In this document: one piece after another, positions 23,849 to 29,915 of the stretch
Layout of the letters: every line of letters starts with the position of its first letter
Position numbering within the stretch: position 1 is the stretch's first letter
Origin: an uncultured Gammaproteobacteria bacterium
GTDB lineage: Bacteria > Pseudomonadota > Gammaproteobacteria > GCA-002705445 > GCA-002716945
Reading direction: 5' to 3'
DNA: 64,000 nt
Assembly: GCA_902559355.1 (NCBI GenBank)
Contig: CACEHM010000002.1
Coordinates: 171,246 to 235,245 of the forward strand
Translations under genes and position numbers: made by a program
The notes under the pieces: model-generated
What the model was told of the DNA's origin: nothing
Seen by the model: the letters and a program-made list of their open reading frames with translations, nothing else
The model's database searches: none

Positions 23849-24870
23849 TTATGTTAAATATTCTAGTGTCTGCATTTCATTAAGTCTACTTTTACATCTT
23901 CTCCAAAGTTCTATAAGTTTATCACCTGTATAAATATGATTATATGAGCAGTTATTAAAAAAAAATTTAATCTTTATTTTGTTTCTATAGCAAATATCTA
24001 TAAAGGATATAAACCTTCTGATAAGATCGGCTGAATCATCATTACAAATAATAAAATCATTTATAAAGATCCACTCTATGTTTTCTGACATCTCAATATA
24101 TTCTTTATCTCCTCCAGGCTCTTTGAAGAAGTCTGAAAAAGAAATCCATAAAAAATCACATGATGTTGCTTTACAACTAAAACTTCTAGAATTGATACAG
24201 TACTTTTTATTAAAAGTTAGATTTTCAAAATTATTTTTTAAAAACTTTACAATATCTTTATCATCATAATTTTGATTTACATTATCATTATACATATTAA
24301 CAATATTTCTTGATCTATAATCTACCAAGCCTTCTACTTTATATAGATTAATTGATTCTTGCATAATCTTCATCTCATTAATAAACACTTCTCTCTGTAG
24401 ACCATTTTTATATAATTCTTCTGGATGTGTATTAGAAGTTAAATACAGAGTAACATTTAATTTAATGAGCTGATTTAGTAGGCTTCCGATAATCATCGCG
24501 TCTGATATATCCTCAACTTGAAATTCATCAATAAATATAACTTTACATTTTTTACTTAAAGATCTAGCTACAATATTCAAAGGATTTTTTTTACCTGACA
24601 AGCCAGATAATTCATCATGTACGATCTGCATGAGCTCCATGTAATGGAATGATGCTTTTCTTTCTGTTAGTAAATTAATAAAAGATTTTGTAATTAAAGT
24701 TTTACCTGTTCCAACATCTCCCCATATATAGAAACCTTTCTTGGAATCTTTATTTTCTAATTTATTTGTTAAATCTTTTTCAGGTTGAATAGATTCAATC
24801 ATTTTGTGAATCAAATCTGATTGTGCTGAATCTAATTTAATCCCTCTTTTTTTTAAACTTTTTTCAATAT
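23849..24870 (-). CDS. zapE: AFG1-family ATPase (cell division protein ZapE)
   Basis: Walker A IWGDVGTGKT and Walker B VIFIDEFQVEDI. I chose the ATG at 24870 (MFEYIEKSL...). The ORF is open upstream to 24982, but only by reading through a tRNA fragment. Confidence 0.7.
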
Positions 24871-24888
24871 ACTCAAACATTTTTTTAA

Positions 24889-24940
24889 TACCACTGATCG
24901 GACTCGAACCGATACTTTCTTGCGAAAAAGGGATCTTGAG
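24889..24940 (-). pseudogene. 3' half of a split tRNA-Leu(CAA) gene: anticodon 3' stem, variable arm, T-arm, acceptor 3' strand
   Basis: The minus strand reads CTCAAGA-TCCCT-TTTTCGCAAGAAAGT-ATCGG-TTCGAGT-CCGAT-CAGTGGT-A. This gives a T-arm with a GGTTCGAGTCC loop, a GNRA-capped variable hairpin, and an acceptor 3' strand complementary to GCCACTG at 29674-29680. Confidence 0.7.
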
Positions 24941-24999
24941 TGCATTGTCTGCACCAACCCAACAGTTACAAGATTTTAACACATTTTTTAATATTTTTT

Positions 25000-25028
25000 T
25001 TACATAAGATATTCATAAGTGCTATAAT
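25000..25028 (+). promoter_or_regulatory. sigma70-like promoter (TTACAT-17 nt-TATAAT)
   Basis: -35 TTACAT at 25000-25005, a 17-nt spacer, and a perfect -10 TATAAT at 25023-25028. An AAGGAGA Shine-Dalgarno sits 7 nt before the ATG at 25097. Confidence 0.4.
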
Positions 25029-25096
25029 AGAGTCTGTCTTGATTTAGAAATTACTCTACTTGCTGGGACATTAAACAAACGCTAAAGGAGAATATA

Positions 25097-25279
25097 ATGA
25101 AATTATCTATTCAGACTATCAAAGACTATTTCAAAAGTAAAAAAGATAAAAATAAAGATCTCATCTTTTTTGAAGAAATAGGAAATCAAAAAACTTCTAA
25201 AGATGACATCATGAAAAATTTGGTCAAGATCTTAGAAAAAAAAGGTTTCAAATATATAGATACAAAATATAAAGACTAA
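25097..25279 (+). CDS. small charged hypothetical protein (60 aa), first gene of the insertion
   Basis: Strong SD (AAAGGAGA), a promoter upstream and a terminator 20 nt downstream. I recognise no homolog. Confidence 0.45.
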   Translation: MKLSIQTIKDYFKSKKDKNKDLIFFEEIGNQKTSKDDIMKNLVKILEKKGFKYIDTKYKD

Positions 25280-25300
25280 ACACATATAATTGTGTAATAC

Positions 25301-25343
25301 AAAAAGAGAGTAACGAGTGCATCTCAACTACTCTCTTTTTTTG
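25301..25343. terminator. rho-independent terminator (bidirectional: A-run / hairpin / T-run)
   Basis: AAAAA-AGAGAGTA-(16-nt loop with inner GAG/CTC pairing)-TACTCTCT-TTTTTTT. Confidence 0.5.
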
Positions 25344-25411: not shown

Positions 25412-25440
25412 TTGACTTACAAATATCAGTAAACATAATA
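25412..25440 (+). promoter_or_regulatory. candidate sigma70 promoter for the five-gene cassette (TTGACT-17 nt-ATAATA)
   Basis: -35 TTGACT at 25412-25417, a 17-nt spacer, and -10 ATAATA at 25435-25440, about 70 nt upstream of the 25511 ATG. Confidence 0.35.
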
Positions 25441-25510: not shown

Positions 25511-26134
25511 ATGGATAAAGAAAAAATTAAAAATAAAATCTTAGATATTGAAACCAAGTATAATTTTACCGAGGGATACAAATTGCTATATTGTCCATGG
25601 TCAACTATTGAACACTCTTCGATTGCGTTTATATCATTAAACCCTGGCAGTAAAATGCCTGATGAGGCAGATATTAGATTGTTATCTGATGAGAGAGGTA
25701 ATTCATATGAAATAGAAATGCATACTACTAAATCTCCTATTACTCATCAATTTTTAGAACTGTGCAAACTTCTCAATAAGAATCCCTCAGATATTCTTAC
25801 TGGCACAATTTGTCCATTTAGAGGTAAATCATGGACATCATTTTCTCGTGATCAGAGAAATGCAGGTCTAATGCTAGGCAAATATTTCTGGCACAAAACT
25901 CTAGATAAGATTAACTTACTCATTTGCGTTGGTAATGATGTTGCAAAAAATATGACTTCTATTTCTGATTTTAAAAAAGAGAAAATTTTTGATTCAGGTT
26001 GGGGTGATATTAAAATAACAAGATATAAAGACAGCACAGGTAAGATACTTATTCATTTACCACACCTCTCTACTTTTAAACTTTTTTCTCGAAAAGAGTG
26101 CTTACTTGTTCTAAAACAAGTTTTTAAGTTATAG
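25511..26134 (+). CDS. hypothetical protein with UDG-superfamily (uracil-DNA glycosylase fold, family 4/SMUG-like) motif pattern
   Basis: IAFISLNPGSKMPDEAD resembles UDG motif 1 (hhhhG-x-[NA]-PG followed by acidic residues). HQFLELCKLL matches the following helix. TICPFRGKSW...LLICVGNDVA resembles the V-x-C-RP..NR...hhV-LG region. The C-terminal HLPHLS resembles UDG motif 2 (HPSPL). This is a recalled pattern match, not a database hit. Confidence 0.45.
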   Translation: MDKEKIKNKILDIETKYNFTEGYKLLYCPWSTIEHSSIAFISLNPGSKMPDEADIRLLSDERGNSYEIEMHTTKSPITHQFLELCKLLNKNPSDILTGTICPFRGKSWTSFSRDQRNAGLMLGKYFWHKTLDKINLLICVGNDVAKNMTSISDFKKEKIFDSGWGDIKITRYKDSTGKILIHLPHLSTFKLFSRKECLLVLKQVFKL

Positions 26135-26149
26135 ACTATAATTTAAATA

Positions 26150-27226
26150 ATGATTGATATACATGATAAACTGCCCTCTGATCTAATTATTGGCAATGAA
26201 TATACTAAACAAGAATTAGATAAGTTGTTTAAGACATCTGAAATTGAAAACATTTATGGGGGTATTGGAAAGATAAATAATCGTTTAATCTTGCTTATCA
26301 CTCTAGACAAAACCTACACCGCAGAACTTCCTAAAAATGAGTCTGAAATGTCAAGAGAAGAGAAGGAAGAGCATAATTATCGTCATCTTGACTATTTTGA
26401 TATGGAGGAAAATATTTTCTGTTGGGATGGACCTACTAATATGAATCTTGAGAGTCCTTTAATAAAAGACTTTACCTCAAAATTATATCAATGCCTGTTG
26501 TTTGTTAGAGAGTATTATCATAAAGATGAATATGAATTTAAGAATAAAATTACTAATGATAAGTATTTTTACTGTGGGAAGATAAGATATCAAAAACATA
26601 TTGATACTAAAATTAAACATTTTATTTCAAGTTTAGAAGATGAACCTAATAAGAAACTTAATCATTTATATAAATTCATACCGACTGAATTAGATGAAAG
26701 AAAGAAAGAATTTAATATCTTAAAAGAAAAAGAGAAAAATGATTTTATTGAGTTAGTGCATCAAGAAGAATCTCGCACTCATGAAAGGAAAAGCACTTTT
26801 TCTGGAAATCCAGGCATTAAAAAAGAGTATATGGTTGAAAGTAACCTCAAAGCAGTATGCGGTTTTCTTAATGAAAGAGGTGGTAACCTTATGATTGGTA
26901 TCGAAGACGATGGGGAGGTTACTGGTATAGAGAAAGATTATAATTATAAAGACAATGATCAATTTGAGAGACATATTCTTTTTCAAATGAGAAAACTAAT
27001 GGATAAATTTGAAGTAATTGAAAAATATATTAAGTTTCAATTTGAATATGCTTCTTTAAGTGATAAAGACTCATCTAGAAAAATAGTATGTAGAATAAAT
27101 TGTAGACCATTACCTGATGATGAAGTTTCTTATGTTAACGGTAAACTTTATTTAAGAGTAGGACCCCAAACTAATGAATTAAGTGTAAAAGAGGCGTTAT
27201 CATGGTTAAAGAGAAGACAAAAGTAA
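26150..27226 (+). CDS. protein with C-terminal AlbA_2 / Schlafen-like (divergent AAA-4) domain
   Basis: EESRTHERKSTF...AVCGFLNERGGNLMIGIEDDGEVTGIEKD matches the AlbA_2 signature (E-S-x-T-x-E-[FY]-K ... A-F-x-N-x-x-GG-x-L-x-IG-V-x-D-D-G-x-V-x-G-I). I recognise no family for the N-terminal ~190 aa. Confidence 0.5.
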   Translation: MIDIHDKLPSDLIIGNEYTKQELDKLFKTSEIENIYGGIGKINNRLILLITLDKTYTAELPKNESEMSREEKEEHNYRHLDYFDMEENIFCWDGPTNMNLESPLIKDFTSKLYQCLLFVREYYHKDEYEFKNKITNDKYFYCGKIRYQKHIDTKIKHFISSLEDEPNKKLNHLYKFIPTELDERKKEFNILKEKEKNDFIELVHQEESRTHERKSTFSGNPGIKKEYMVESNLKAVCGFLNERGGNLMIGIEDDGEVTGIEKDYNYKDNDQFERHILFQMRKLMDKFEVIEKYIKFQFEYASLSDKDSSRKIVCRINCRPLPDDEVSYVNGKLYLRVGPQTNELSVKEALSWLKRRQK

Positions 27227-27636
27227 AGATATACCAAGGTGGTTCAACAGGTTTAGTTCAACAAAATAAACGCATGATTATGAAGTCTTCTCACACCAAA
27301 GGTGATGTAGGGATTCAAAGACAATTAAAAGATATGTTAAAAGCGAAATTTTCTTTTCATATAGTAATTATGCACTTTGGTGATTTTTTCAGGATAATCG
27401 AAGAGGACGCAGAGTTTTTTAATAAAGAATTTAATTTTAAACTTTCACAACCAGGACGATACACTTTCGTTACAACTGCGTTCCCTCTAAATAGTAGGCA
27501 AAAATATATAGATAAACTTACTGATATGGAAAAACAATTTTGTCTTCTAGATCAATATAAAGTTGACGGTACAGAGGAATTTTATAGGAAGGTAAACATA
27601 TCAACAAATAAAGATGCACTAGGGTTCTGGTACTAA
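27202..27636 (+). CDS. stand-alone MutS domain I (mismatch-recognition domain)-like protein
   Basis: [45 protein letters not shown] parallels E. coli MutS [71 protein letters not shown] parallels [28 protein letters not shown]. The GDF-Y-E Glu is Arg here (GDFFR). The gene overlaps the upstream ORF by 25 nt; an alternative start is the Met at 27274. Confidence 0.5.
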   Translation: [144 protein letters not shown]

Positions 27637-27656
27637 ATAAGAGAAGTCTCTAGTTC

Positions 27657-28352
27657 ATGATTGATATAACTTTTGATATGTTCTCGGATACTCCTGAAGG
27701 AAAAGATCCAGATACATGGAGTCCAACGTTAAGAAAGTACCATCAAATTTTATGGAATAAACGATTACCCAATGGAACTATGTTTAGTCTTGATCTTGAG
27801 ACAAGACAGTTATTACATCACAGATCTCAATTAGGAGAATTTTATTTATCAAGTGATTGTATAGGTCATACATACAGTCGTACTAAAAGTATTTCTGATA
27901 TAGTCAATCAGATTCCCTTAAGTGAAATAGATTCGTTTTATAAACTATGTAGCACAATAGGTTCTTATATCATATATCCTTGCAAAAGAATTGATAATAA
28001 GATGACATTTAATGGTGCTCGAGGTACTAATCGCAAGATAAAAGATAGATTCGACCTAACATTAGAATGTATTCGATTGTTTTATCAAAATGAAAAAAGT
28101 CCACTTAGTGAGACTATAGAAAGATATAAATCATATTTTAAACTATTTGATAACTTTCAAGGTTATGTTGATTTCTTTTTACTTCAAGATTTAGTATCAA
28201 GTGATTATTCGTCTATTAAATATCTTATACCTTTTAAAGATTTCGATAGTCCAGCACTACCATGCAACGTAGAAGAATATATTACTTATAAAGATAATAC
28301 GACAAAATTTATTTCACAAAGAAATGAAAGAATATTAAAATCAATACAATGA
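27657..28352 (+). CDS. hypothetical protein (orphan, 231 aa)
   Basis: Tightly linked to its neighbours (ATGA overlap with the next gene). I recognise no motif. Conserved-looking stretch: DPDTWSPTLRKYHQILWNKRLPNG. Confidence 0.5.
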   Translation: MIDITFDMFSDTPEGKDPDTWSPTLRKYHQILWNKRLPNGTMFSLDLETRQLLHHRSQLGEFYLSSDCIGHTYSRTKSISDIVNQIPLSEIDSFYKLCSTIGSYIIYPCKRIDNKMTFNGARGTNRKIKDRFDLTLECIRLFYQNEKSPLSETIERYKSYFKLFDNFQGYVDFFLLQDLVSSDYSSIKYLIPFKDFDSPALPCNVEEYITYKDNTTKFISQRNERILKSIQ

Positions 28353-29419
28353 GTAAATTTAAACCTATCTTATACGACGAACTATTTAAATTAATAACAC
28401 TTGGTGATGATGAAGAATGGGAAAAATTTTCTTCAGAGTACGAACATGTCTTTACACCAGGGTTTTTCTCACAACTTTCTGACACCGAAATTTATGAACT
28501 ATTTAATCATTATCAATTTTTATCCATTGAATATTGGAATATTTATTCTTCTTCATTAATTAACTCAGAGAATAATAAAATTAGATCCAATCAACTTCTA
28601 AAAAAATATCGTGAAATATGGGAAGGAAAAACACATAATAAAAATAGCACAGTCACTCCTGGAATTAACGAAAGAAAAATTAAAGAAATTGATGATTTTG
28701 AATTTGCAATTAATTATCCAGTCGAGGAAATATTAGATCCATCATTAAGCGCCGCAGGACCACATTTCTCAGAGATTGTATTTTGTTCAATACTTTATAG
28801 TTTTTTTGAGGAAATACTAACAACCTTCGTATTTAATGTATCTGGAAGTAAGTGTTTTTTTAATAATATAAAATATAAAGATCATTACTTCTATAAAACA
28901 AATAGATATACAGACTTGTATAAAGATTATATGAAACATTCAATCAAAGAACCAAAGAGAAAAGACTATAAGAATTTAGATGATTTTTATTCGGAAAGAT
29001 TAAGATATAGAAACATTACTAAAAAAAGTCTTCCTGAAATTAAAAACAATGAATGGTTAGAGTTTTATAGAAATAATAAGGGTATTGATGGTCGAGAAGT
29101 CCCTGATTACATTATTAAAGCAAAATATATAGATCAAAGATGTGACAGTACATTATATTCTGACTTAATATCACAGAGTAGATTTAAAGAATTCAAAATT
29201 AAAAGGAACAATGTGATGCATGCAAAATCAAATGAATCTAATATATCAACTCTTGCATGTTTTGATATTATAACTGATTTGCTTAACTTCTTAATTAATG
29301 ATAAGAATATTATCAATCAATATTCTAGTTGTATAAGTCAAAACAGTCTAAGATTTGATATTGATAAATTAGATGACGATGATGCTATTTGGGTATTTCA
29401 ATCTGAGATGACTTATTAA
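28349..29419 (+). CDS. hypothetical protein with C-terminal HEPN/Abi_2-like R-x4-H motif (candidate RNase effector)
   Basis: The C-terminal FKIKRNNVMHAKSNESNISTLACFDII contains an R-N-x-x-x-H motif typical of HEPN abortive-infection proteins. Size and composition are compatible with AbiD/AbiF-like proteins. Weak. Confidence 0.35.
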   Translation: MSKFKPILYDELFKLITLGDDEEWEKFSSEYEHVFTPGFFSQLSDTEIYELFNHYQFLSIEYWNIYSSSLINSENNKIRSNQLLKKYREIWEGKTHNKNSTVTPGINERKIKEIDDFEFAINYPVEEILDPSLSAAGPHFSEIVFCSILYSFFEEILTTFVFNVSGSKCFFNNIKYKDHYFYKTNRYTDLYKDYMKHSIKEPKRKDYKNLDDFYSERLRYRNITKKSLPEIKNNEWLEFYRNNKGIDGREVPDYIIKAKYIDQRCDSTLYSDLISQSRFKEFKIKRNNVMHAKSNESNISTLACFDIITDLLNFLINDKNIINQYSSCISQNSLRFDIDKLDDDDAIWVFQSEMTY

Positions 29420-29425
29420 TATTTA

Positions 29426-29509
29426 TAGCGATAGACAGACTCGAACTGTCACTCTGTTGCCAGAATCGGATTTTGAGTCCGACGCGTCTACCAATTCCGC
29501 CATATCGCC
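29426..29509 (-). tRNA. tRNA-Leu (anticodon CAA), class II with long variable arm
   Basis: Cloverleaf read manually on the minus strand: acceptor GGCGATA/TATCGCT (G1-U72), D-arm GCG-GAATTGGTAGA-CGC, anticodon arm TCGGA-CTCAAAA-TCCGA, variable hairpin TCTG-GCAA-CAGA, T-arm GACAG-TTCGAGT-CTGTC, discriminator A, and no encoded CCA. Confidence 0.85.
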
Positions 29510-29640
29510 ATGAGTAATTTATTCTATCAAAAACACAAACACTTTGGAAAGGTGTATGTACGGATAAATGTTTGTGCAATGTTTGTGACTAAAATTTACA
29601 AATTATAAGCATTACCAAGGCATCTGATGCATCCGTCTTC

Positions 29641-29680
29641 GTTTTGAGTCCCTCGTGTCTACCAATTCCACCACAGTGGC
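29641..29680 (-). pseudogene. 5' half of the split tRNA-Leu(CAA): acceptor 5' strand, D-arm, anticodon 5' stem and loop
   Basis: The minus strand reads GCCACTG-TG-GTG-GAATTGGTAGA-CAC-G-AGGGA-CTCAAAA, then diverges into GAAGACGG... with no anticodon 3' stem or T-arm. AGGGA pairs with TCCCT in the fragment at 24929-24933. Confidence 0.65.
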
Positions 29681-29717
29681 ATAATATTATTTATTTATGT
29701 GTTATCATTACAGAATA

Positions 29718-29915
29718 ATGGATTATATCACATATATTGTTCTCATTGTTCTCGTAATATTCGGTGTCATATATTTTAAAAAACAGTTTTTACTCTCTAG
29801 AGATATTCGTTTAGAAGATACAACACTAGAAGAACTAGATGAAAAATTAAAAAAGCATAAATTAATTGGCGGACGCCATAAAAGAACTAATAAAAAGAAC
29901 CCGCCAATAGTTTAG
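29718..29915 (+). CDS. small single-TM hypothetical protein
   Basis: MDYITYIVLIVLVIFGVIYF gives a TM helix followed by a charged tail. The ORF track starts 21 nt earlier, at 29697. Confidence 0.3.
   Translation: MDYITYIVLIVLVIFGVIYFKKQFLLSRDIRLEDTTLEELDEKLKKHKLIGGRHKRTNKKNPPIV

Follow-up and report, generated by a model that had tools for sequence, protein, structure and literature searches.

Among the defence systems described so far, the nearest parallels to the locus discussed here include DNA glycosylases of the uracil-DNA glycosylase (UDG) superfamily: Brig1 excises glucosyl-hydroxymethylcytosine (PMC11078745), Brig2 acts against phages carrying thymidine hypermodifications (10.1101/2025.10.29.685425), and Brig3 is encoded by an open reading frame (ORF) that overlaps the accessory gene bapA (10.64898/2026.02.25.707755). 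Prokaryotic Schlafen domains have lately been demonstrated to act as tRNA endonucleases, with E/D catalytic residues in a position considered below (PMC13462974); domain I of MutS (MutS-I) is known outside MutS only in the polyvalent proteins of phages and conjugative elements, where binding of single-stranded DNA and an anti-restriction role have been predicted (Iyer et al. 2017, PMC5512222); for the DUF6994 family, a beta-beta-alpha-metal core like that of Type IV/HNH enzymes has been predicted, in which the catalytic His is replaced by Ala and two Asp residues are invariant (PMC11701544). Proteins of these four kinds, together with a HEPN-like protein, are encoded by five consecutive genes (O1-O5) in a 64,000-nucleotide stretch of contig CACEHM010000002.1 from an uncultured gammaproteobacterium (the window, to which all coordinates given without a locus name refer). 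Judged by its relatives, the genome would be marine and probably SAR86-like. The five genes are probably a recently assembled mosaic of three small nucleic-acid modules, and not the one co-evolved five-protein system proposed in an earlier reading of the sequence (hereafter, the original prediction).

The ORF list places the five forward-strand ORFs where the original prediction had put them. O1 (25511-26134, +; 207 amino acids; ORF list and structure model) is a divergent UDG-superfamily protein; O2 (26150-27226, +; 358 amino acids) consists of an N-terminal domain of about 200 amino acids and a C-terminal Schlafen/AlbA_2 domain (PF04326); O3 (27202-27636, +; 144 amino acids) is a stand-alone MutS domain I (PF01624); O4 (27657-28352, +; 231 amino acids) belongs to DUF6994 (PF22507); and O5 (28349-29419, +; 356 amino acids) is an all-alpha, HEPN-like protein with an R-N-N-V-M-H motif (motif and model). 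The O2/O3 overlap of 25 nucleotides, the O3/O4 gap of 20 nucleotides and the ATGA overlap of O4 and O5 had been given correctly, while the gap between O1 and O2 is of 15 nucleotides and not 16. That O1-O4 are real genes is shown by purifying selection, the ratios of non-synonymous to synonymous divergence (dN/dS) being 0.06-0.16 when they are compared with their orthologues in related contigs; O5, which has no orthologue in those contigs, lies outside this comparison.

Both flanks of the window island are found again, with other cargo between them, in L001 and in L084-L086 (loci of other contigs are designated by L numbers throughout). In the window the cargo is O0 (a small ORF, see below) and O1, O2, O3, O4 and O5; in L001 it is O1 (84% amino acid identity), joined by an ATGA overlap to O4 (88%), and an unrelated 223-amino-acid gene, with copies of a tRNA 3' half on either side; in L084-L086 it is an AlbA_2 gene (97.5% identical to O2), DUF2130, a tRNA-fragment repeat, MutS_I (88%), hsdM, hsdS, hsdR, O1 (86%), DUF6994 (85%) and an EEP nuclease, the DUF6994 gene overlapping O1 by ATGA and the EEP gene being attached in the same way. 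This makes the site a hypervariable hotspot, where defence-type cargo is found in several gene orders, that of the window being one; the defence-type context that had been claimed for the cassette is borne out by the Type I restriction-modification (R-M) genes, the DUF2130 protein of the PD-(D/E)XK family and the EEP nuclease carried by these relatives.

The history of the individual genes is uneven. Synonymous divergence (dS) from L084 is 0.13 for O2 and 0.79, 1.07 and 0.70 for O1, O3 and O4, respectively, that is, it changes 6-8-fold between neighbouring genes. Immediately upstream of the O4 ATG lies a relic of the 3' end of O1 (27640-27656), which fits an ancestral O1/O4 overlap with the O2-O3 segment inserted into it; O1 and O4 still overlap directly in the relatives. 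At the O2/O3 junction, similarity switches from the 3' end of the L084 AlbA_2 gene to the start of the L084 MutS_I gene inside a short similar stretch (microhomology); the canonical O3 start, ATGGTAAAG, reads AAAGTAAAG in the window, and O3 therefore opens from an ATG inside O2. Since nearly all members of the O3 family begin at the position of O3 residue 7, the 25-nucleotide overlap is most simply read as a deletion scar, left by an event that would have removed DUF2130 and the tRNA fragment. What had been taken for translational coupling of O2 and O3 is, accordingly, a recombination junction that destroyed the canonical ATG of O3.

It is quite unlikely that all five genes form one new defence system, in which the UDG-like, AlbA_2 and MutS_I proteins would sense modified or damaged DNA and the DUF6994 and HEPN proteins would kill the phage or the cell. 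The compact, co-directional arrangement, with one candidate promoter and no internal terminator-like site, agrees with such a system, as do the pairwise links that reach all five genes (the O1-O4 overlap, a fusion of O5-like and O4-like sequences with an O3 homologue adjacent, and the recurrence of O2 with O3) and the occurrence in L084 of four of the families inside a stretch of 11 kb; in that same locus, however, a tRNA-fragment copy parts AlbA_2 from MutS_I and the Type I R-M operon parts MutS_I from O1 and O4, while L001 has O1 and O4 without O2, O3 or O5. Furthermore, the five families occur together in the window and at no other locus, each of them being mostly found without the others; dS is heterogeneous, and the junction scars show that the genes came to lie side by side recently and by accident.

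The cassette is the cargo of an accessory island of about 4.7 kb (~24.9-29.7 kb), inserted in the anticodon loop of tRNA-Leu(CAA) and equipped with its own replacement tRNA. The left boundary is a displaced 3' half of the split tRNA-Leu(CAA), from anticodon loop to acceptor end (24889-24940, -; alignment with the L084 and L001 copies), from which a degenerate tRNA-like stretch runs on to ~24975; the right boundary is the 5' half, from acceptor to anticodon loop (29642-29680, -; alignment). ARAGORN calls no tRNA from either half alone; when 29642-29680 (-) is joined to 24889-24940 (-), it recovers an 86-nucleotide tRNA-Leu(CAA) with a paired acceptor stem, and the insertion therefore lies in the anticodon loop. 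An intact tRNA-Leu(CAA) is found 5 nucleotides past the O5 stop codon (29425-29510, -; ARAGORN; Rfam tRNA, 60.1 bits), the 5' half of the split gene being 80% identical to its 5' part, and presumably replaces the gene that was split; an Rfam scan of the region gave nothing beyond tRNA.

Two of the usual marks of a tRNA-targeted island, namely insertion in a tRNA gene and repeats of tRNA fragments, are seen here, whereas an island-encoded integrase is not: the non-antisense, non-overlapping ORFs of at least 50 amino acids in 24.9-29.7 kb are O0-O5 only, with no recombinase match among them, and the L001 and L084-L086 islands hold no recombinase either. The original description as a small, accessory, tRNA-targeted island without an integrase is in agreement with the rebuilt tRNA and with the different cargo of the relatives. 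The G+C content of the island equals that of its flanks, with no anomaly of composition, and neither supports nor refutes a recent acquisition. Copies of the tRNA 3'-half fragment occur twice each in L084 (1-134 and 2493-2606) and L001 (9259-9352 and 11386-11441); in the relatives' islands they part blocks of genes, as if cargo had been added by successive site-specific insertions, and ARAGORN calls some of them whole tRNAs, namely tRNA-Ser(cga) in L084 and L086 and tRNA-Leu(caa) in L085.

Upstream of O1, a candidate sigma-70-like promoter (TTGACT-16-CATAAT; 25412-25439, +) matches the consensus at 10 of 12 positions. The site that had been called a good promoter is present; its quality is another matter, as promoter-like sites are not enriched in this DNA of 28-30% G+C (27 found versus 32.5 +/- 6.3 expected in shuffled sequence) and, such DNA being AT-rich, this one is not statistically distinguishable from chance.

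O1 has no match in Pfam, NCBIfam, PHROG or PADLOC, and its family profile gave spurious hits only against PDB sequences. The model built from an alignment of 36 homologues reaches a predicted local distance difference test score (pLDDT) of 95.5 and has the alpha/beta UDG fold, as had been anticipated, its best Foldseek match being 4ZBY; no Brig structure is among its PDB matches. The segments L-N-P-G (N44, P45, G46) and H185-L186-S187 are invariant across the 36 homologues, and, in sequence pattern, resemble UDG motifs A and B. Motif A reads, for instance, G-I/M-N-P-G in TDG, MUG and SMUG1, and motif B contains a His, for instance H-P-S. By fold and context, O1 is a candidate for a new clade of the UDG superfamily, of the same general kind as Brig1, Brig2 and Brig3.

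The surroundings of the O1 homologues are mostly those of a Brig-type glycosylase, that is, defence genes or mobile elements (L084, L088, L092, L133), with L090 and L134 as exceptions. Where DUF6994 is missing, O1 homologues adjoin DUF2130 and an NgoFVII R-M system in L088 and an integrase in L092; in L133 one comes after glmS, by an HNH gene and near a PvuRts1I/SRA Type IV enzyme. The last of these loci (L133, 2400-8063, downstream of glmS) is an island of its own, made up of the HNH protein, the O1-like UDG-fold protein, the PvuRts1I-like/SRA enzyme, which by family annotation is modified-cytosine-dependent, and recombinase fragments; the region downstream of glmS is the classical attachment region of Tn7. 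Relatives of O3 adjoin glmS as well (L129, L087).

In L090 and L134 the O1 homologues are singletons amid housekeeping genes, as a repair glycosylase might be, and this bears on the possibility that the window genes are accessory repair or housekeeping genes in a variable region, O1 acting as a repair glycosylase for uracil or mismatches, O3 as a DNA binder in repair and DUF6994 as a metabolic or repair enzyme. The UDG fold of O1 with conserved N-P-G and H-x-S motif positions, a photolyase adjoining an O3 homologue in L098 and the extreme conservation of DUF6994, as might be expected of an enzyme whose substrate is universal, are in keeping with that account; it is nevertheless very improbable given the patchy distribution, the insertion hotspot, a content that differs between close relatives, the company of R-M systems, Type IV enzymes, HEPN proteins and other nucleases, and the lack of conservation in O3 of the residues by which MutS reads mismatches.

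The AlbA_2/Schlafen assignment of O2 holds, since amino acids 207-344 match SLFN_AlbA_2 (PF04326) with E=5e-14 and 53.3 bits against a gathering threshold of 25.3; among PDB sequences, SLFN12 and SLFN5 are matched at E=7e-4. The motifs E-x4-E-x-K (E-SRTH-E-RK) and E-D-x-G (I-E-D-D-G) are common to O2 and to the AlbA_2 proteins of L109 and L113, and the E-x4-E sits where Cash has its catalytic E17/D22, a correspondence by pattern only.

O3, too, turned out to be what had been announced, a stand-alone MutS domain I, matching PF01624 with 32.5 bits (gathering threshold 20.6); in Thermus aquaticus MutS (1ewq), the match of the family profile covers residues 23-103 (E=0.0026), and the dN/dS of O3 is 0.06. 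The family comprises 34 clusters of ~138 amino acids (range 135-145), almost all from metagenome assemblies, and its similarity to MutS is limited to domain I, there being none of domains II-V, including the ABC ATPase. In MutS, the Phe-x-Glu motif of mismatch recognition reads G-D-F-Y-E. At this site O3 reads G-D-F-F-R, and among 20 family members the Phe position is occupied by F, Y, M, T or N and the Glu position by R, K, T, I, N, E, H or S; the motif being not conserved, mismatch reading, which the original prediction had assumed, does not follow. An invariant N-terminal peptide of the family (window 27220-27260) lies outside the MutS-I region, and is the best-conserved feature of the family, though family identity falls to ~30%. 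A literature search found nothing on stand-alone MutS-I or on its pairing with AlbA_2; the novelty claimed for a stand-alone MutS_I holds against the earlier occurrences outside MutS, all in polyvalent proteins (PMC5512222).

Apparently, O2 and O3 belong together beyond the window. Over 39 metagenome loci of the O3 family, AlbA_2 genes flank distant MutS_I-only genes (29-33% identity) in L109, L111 and L113 and lie near one in L095; the AlbA_2 profile has 4 matches in 162 kb of O3 loci versus 0 in 1,120 kb of DUF6994 loci, and the recurrent pair of AlbA_2 and MutS_I-only genes is real. Type I R-M genes are adjacent to or near O3 relatives in L095/L096, L099 and L113, and EEP nucleases are adjacent in L104 and L110.

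A 199-amino-acid tyrosine recombinase recurs in seven loci of the O3 family and serine recombinases in four more, so that a distant MutS_I-only subfamily adjoining these small recombinases may have a function in mobile elements. The former protein consists of the tyrosine-recombinase catalytic domain only (Phage_integrase, E ~1e-20; L111, L117, L120, L126-L128 and L131, e.g. L131 5392-5991), and its gene is placed 10 nucleotides upstream of the MutS_I-only gene in L117 and L131; the two could represent a conserved pair of mini-integrase and MutS-I on small integrative elements. An explanation in which some or all of the window genes serve a mobile element, O3 being a DNA-binding accessory of integration and excision or an anti-restriction protein and O1 protecting or processing the element's DNA, builds on this arrangement, on serine recombinases or an integrase nearby in L104, L117-119 and L127, on the polyvalent proteins of phages and conjugative elements, on the position of O3 directly upstream of hsdM in L084 and on the integrase beside the O1 homologue of L092. 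For the locus as a whole it is unlikely: the window island has no recombinase, scans of viral contigs gave no relatives of O2 or O3, DUF6994 is nearly missing from phage (1/50,697) and plasmid (4/72,556) records, and what surrounds these genes, nucleases and R-M systems, is the usual cargo of host defence. For O3 alone, a DNA-binding or anti-restriction role in a mobile element is a genuine rival.

O4 had been regarded as an orphan, but it is a full-length member of DUF6994 (PF22507; E=3e-90, 302 bits, profile positions 1-226 of 226), a family with more than 4,900 homologues. In a genome scan, the best 80 DUF6994 loci (L004-L083), 48-64% identical to O4, came from Proteobacteria, Actinomycetota, Chloroflexota, Bacteroidota, the Candidate Phyla Radiation (CPR) and Archaea; about 50% identity or more is kept between Archaea (Bathyarchaeota, Woesearchaeota), CPR (Saccharibacteria, Dojkabacteria) and many bacterial phyla. 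Such conservation is unusually high for a patchy accessory gene and therefore points to strong constraint combined with frequent horizontal transfer. The DUF6994 profile has no match among PDB sequences, and no literature on the family was found beyond Pfam.

No conserved neighbour accompanies DUF6994 over 83 loci, the largest neighbour cluster having 3 members; an O1 homologue is near in 2 of the 83 (L001 and L045, the latter a weak match 2.3 kb off), and O2, O3 and O5 homologues in none. In about one third of the loci a neighbour is tightly coupled, and where this partner can be annotated it is a GIY-YIG (L013), PD-(D/E)XK (L021) or McrB-N+HNH (L020) protein, a CBS protein with a weak HEPN match (L072) or a methyltransferase-like protein (L055); to these are added the EEP nuclease (L084), the UDG-like protein (L001, L084) and, in the window, the HEPN-like protein. 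DUF6994 is a very widespread, highly conserved and self-contained gene with interchangeable nuclease neighbours.

O5 is a near-orphan, found in 10 representative clusters among 1.84 billion. Its R-N-x3-H is invariant in all seven family members covering the region and in the L100 fusion described below, and conforms to the R-x4-6-H of HEPN proteins; the model is all-alpha, with a pLDDT of 68.6 overall and 83-90 around the motif. O5 is without a Pfam family at E<=1, and its 8 aligned relatives match neither a HEPN nor an Abi_2 model; of the HEPN/Abi-like character first proposed, the HEPN motif stands, and Abi_2 (PF07751) is ruled out for want of a match. One O5 relative (P0247, 399 amino acids) joins an N-terminal domain of the impB/mucB/samB type (Y-family polymerase) to an O5-like C-terminal HEPN region, and may be a real fusion or a chimera of gene calling or assembly.

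A link between O5 and O4 outside the window comes from L100 (5213-6621), where a MutS_I-only gene is followed after 12 nucleotides by a single ORF whose first ~260 amino acids are O5-like (KRNEIVH) and which passes, uninterrupted by a stop or an ATG and in the same frame, into an N-terminal DUF6994 part that is 72% identical to O4; this fusion is known from one contig, which ends inside the gene. L100 lies at an apparent second hotspot, after genes sized like ftsK, serS and a major facilitator superfamily transporter, and at the same position L002 has a 283-amino-acid gene with DUF6994, and another contig MutS_I alone. A sensitive hidden Markov model of the O5 family found nothing at the 83 DUF6994 loci and, among the O3 loci, L100 only.

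Starting from what is directly established, namely the genes, their folds and domains, the selection on O1-O4, the tRNA split, the allelic variation, the mosaic history and the pairwise associations, the mosaic can be read as three modules that would now be co-transcribed: O1, ancestrally with O4; O2 with O3; and O4 with O5. In module A, O1 would flip out and excise a non-canonical base from invading DNA, leaving abasic sites. In module B, placed between O1 and O4, O3 would be a DNA-binding subunit that keeps the MutS-I scaffold and not the mismatch-reading residues, and O2 a Schlafen-type nuclease or nucleic-acid binder. In module C, O4 would recognise or process DNA and O5 would be an RNase-type effector. 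A role in defence is suggested because of the neighbouring genes, the folds, the accessory and variable locus and the experimental precedents. More tentatively, DUF6994 might be the conserved core of a widespread, undescribed immune family with swappable nucleic-acid-cleaving partners, and AlbA_2 with stand-alone MutS-I a second undescribed module, with a Schlafen nuclease guided or regulated by a DNA binder derived from MutS; the island would in that case contain two or three new defence systems together.

Several points weigh against a mosaic of defence modules, besides the solitary O1 homologues and the recombinase-linked MutS_I-only genes already mentioned. We infer all biochemical activities and the anti-phage role, and likewise whether the O2/O3 junction arose by deletion or by insertion. 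O1-O5 have no match in PADLOC-DB 2.0.0 at E<=1, in line with the claim that this is not a named defence system; the result fits novelty and fits equally a role outside defence. The neighbours of most DUF6994 genes are housekeeping genes or cannot be annotated, and a PADLOC scan of DUF6994 neighbours found defence families in near and far sets alike, with no per-protein counts and no enrichment shown. The associations of O1, O3 and O5 come mostly from contigs of marine metagenomes or single-cell genomes, which may be close phylogenetically, and shared ancestry inflates the co-occurrence of these genes. Finally, the pairwise links (O1-O4, O4 with O5, O3 beside the O5-O4 fusion, O2-O3) join all five genes, so that some functional cross-talk may exist between the modules.

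Should the cargo be defensive, the island would provide concrete, clonable candidates for three uncharacterised mechanisms. O1 would then represent, in marine bacteria whose phages carry largely unexplored DNA modifications, a new clade of defence-type DNA glycosylase; DUF6994, with more than 4,900 homologues conserved at ~50% identity or more, would be tied to swappable nucleases and to a HEPN fusion; and O3 would represent the first stand-alone MutS-I family, recurrently paired with Schlafen/AlbA_2, a pairing that gains interest from the fact that animals, too, have Schlafen proteins as immune nucleases. Independently of function, the locus documents the shuffling of defence cargo at a tRNA hotspot through short-homology recombination; such shuffling yields apparent operons whose tight spacing is a historical accident and no proof of a shared mechanism, which calls for caution in guilt-by-association predictions.

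Other features of the region deserve mention. Between the left tRNA half and the cassette, O0 (25097-25279, +; ORF list), a lysine-rich ORF of 60 amino acids, forms a unit of its own, with a strong promoter-like site (24999-25028; 11/12 match, extended -10) and a convincing terminator hairpin (25301-25342; -21 kcal/mol, z = -4.97) followed by a U-run; it has no nucleotide match in L001 or L084 and no family match, and the whole of 24999-25342 is a self-contained mini-unit of promoter-like site, O0 and intrinsic terminator, found only in the window allele. Between pfkB and the island, the window has a gene (23849-24880, -) which, from our own reading of its translation, we take to encode a ZapE/AFG1-like ATPase; the gene is not found in the syntenic L001, where pfkB abuts the tRNA fragment, and the region to the left of the island is therefore variable too. 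Just outside the island, the conserved flank carries a small ORF (window 29697-29915, 72 amino acids; L001 12316-12513, 65 amino acids) with a hydrophobic N-terminus and a basic tail (…HKLIGGRHKRTNKKNPPIV).

Compared with known systems, O1 resembles the Brig proteins in being a highly divergent member of the UDG superfamily, with no Pfam model, placed in a defence-type island; its best structural match, 4ZBY, was also reported as the best for Brig1 (PMC11078745), and in the relatives its ORF overlaps a second gene (DUF6994) much as that of brig3 overlaps bapA. The partners themselves are different: BapA is described as an ASCH-like double beta-barrel deglucosylase with the functional residue Q252, while the partner of O1 is a DUF6994 protein of 231 amino acids, predicted to be beta-beta-alpha-metal-like, so that DUF6994 is ruled out as a BapA. 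DUF6994 shares with Type IV enzymes of the GmrSD/BrxU type, which have His-Me finger nucleases, the beta-beta-alpha-metal core of the published prediction (PMC11701544), and one DUF6994 gene lies in a Type IV context, 9 nucleotides after a McrB-N+HNH enzyme (L020); unlike those enzymes, it is reported to have Ala in place of the catalytic His and two invariant Asp residues, and it has no ParB/DUF262-like NTPase domain.

O2 is comparable to the Schlafen nucleases Cash and SLFN-pAgo in its Pfam-significant SLFN_AlbA_2 domain and, by pattern, in its E-x4-E, and to the AlbA_2 genes embedded in R-M loci, its L084 orthologue being less than 2 kb from a Type I R-M operon; it differs from Cash and SLFN-pAgo in having, instead of a Csx15, Argonaute or ATPase partner domain, its own N-terminal domain of ~200 amino acids and a recurrent MutS_I-only neighbour. 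Like the MutS-I of polyvalent proteins, O3 is found on mobile or accessory DNA; unlike both these and MutS, it is a stand-alone protein of ~138 amino acids with a variable Phe-x-Glu and a family-specific N-terminal peptide, without ATPase, clamp or ArdC-N context. O5 can be likened to the HEPN RNases of abortive infection and toxin systems (HEPN-MNT toxins, Csm6, the C-terminal domain of AbiA, HepS). By analogy, the glycosylase with an overlapping helper represented by Brig3-BapA is the closest analogue of the O1-O4 pair; the kinds of parts assembled at this locus (defence glycosylase, Schlafen nuclease, HEPN effector, tRNA hotspot) are known, whereas the specific families and their pairings are new.

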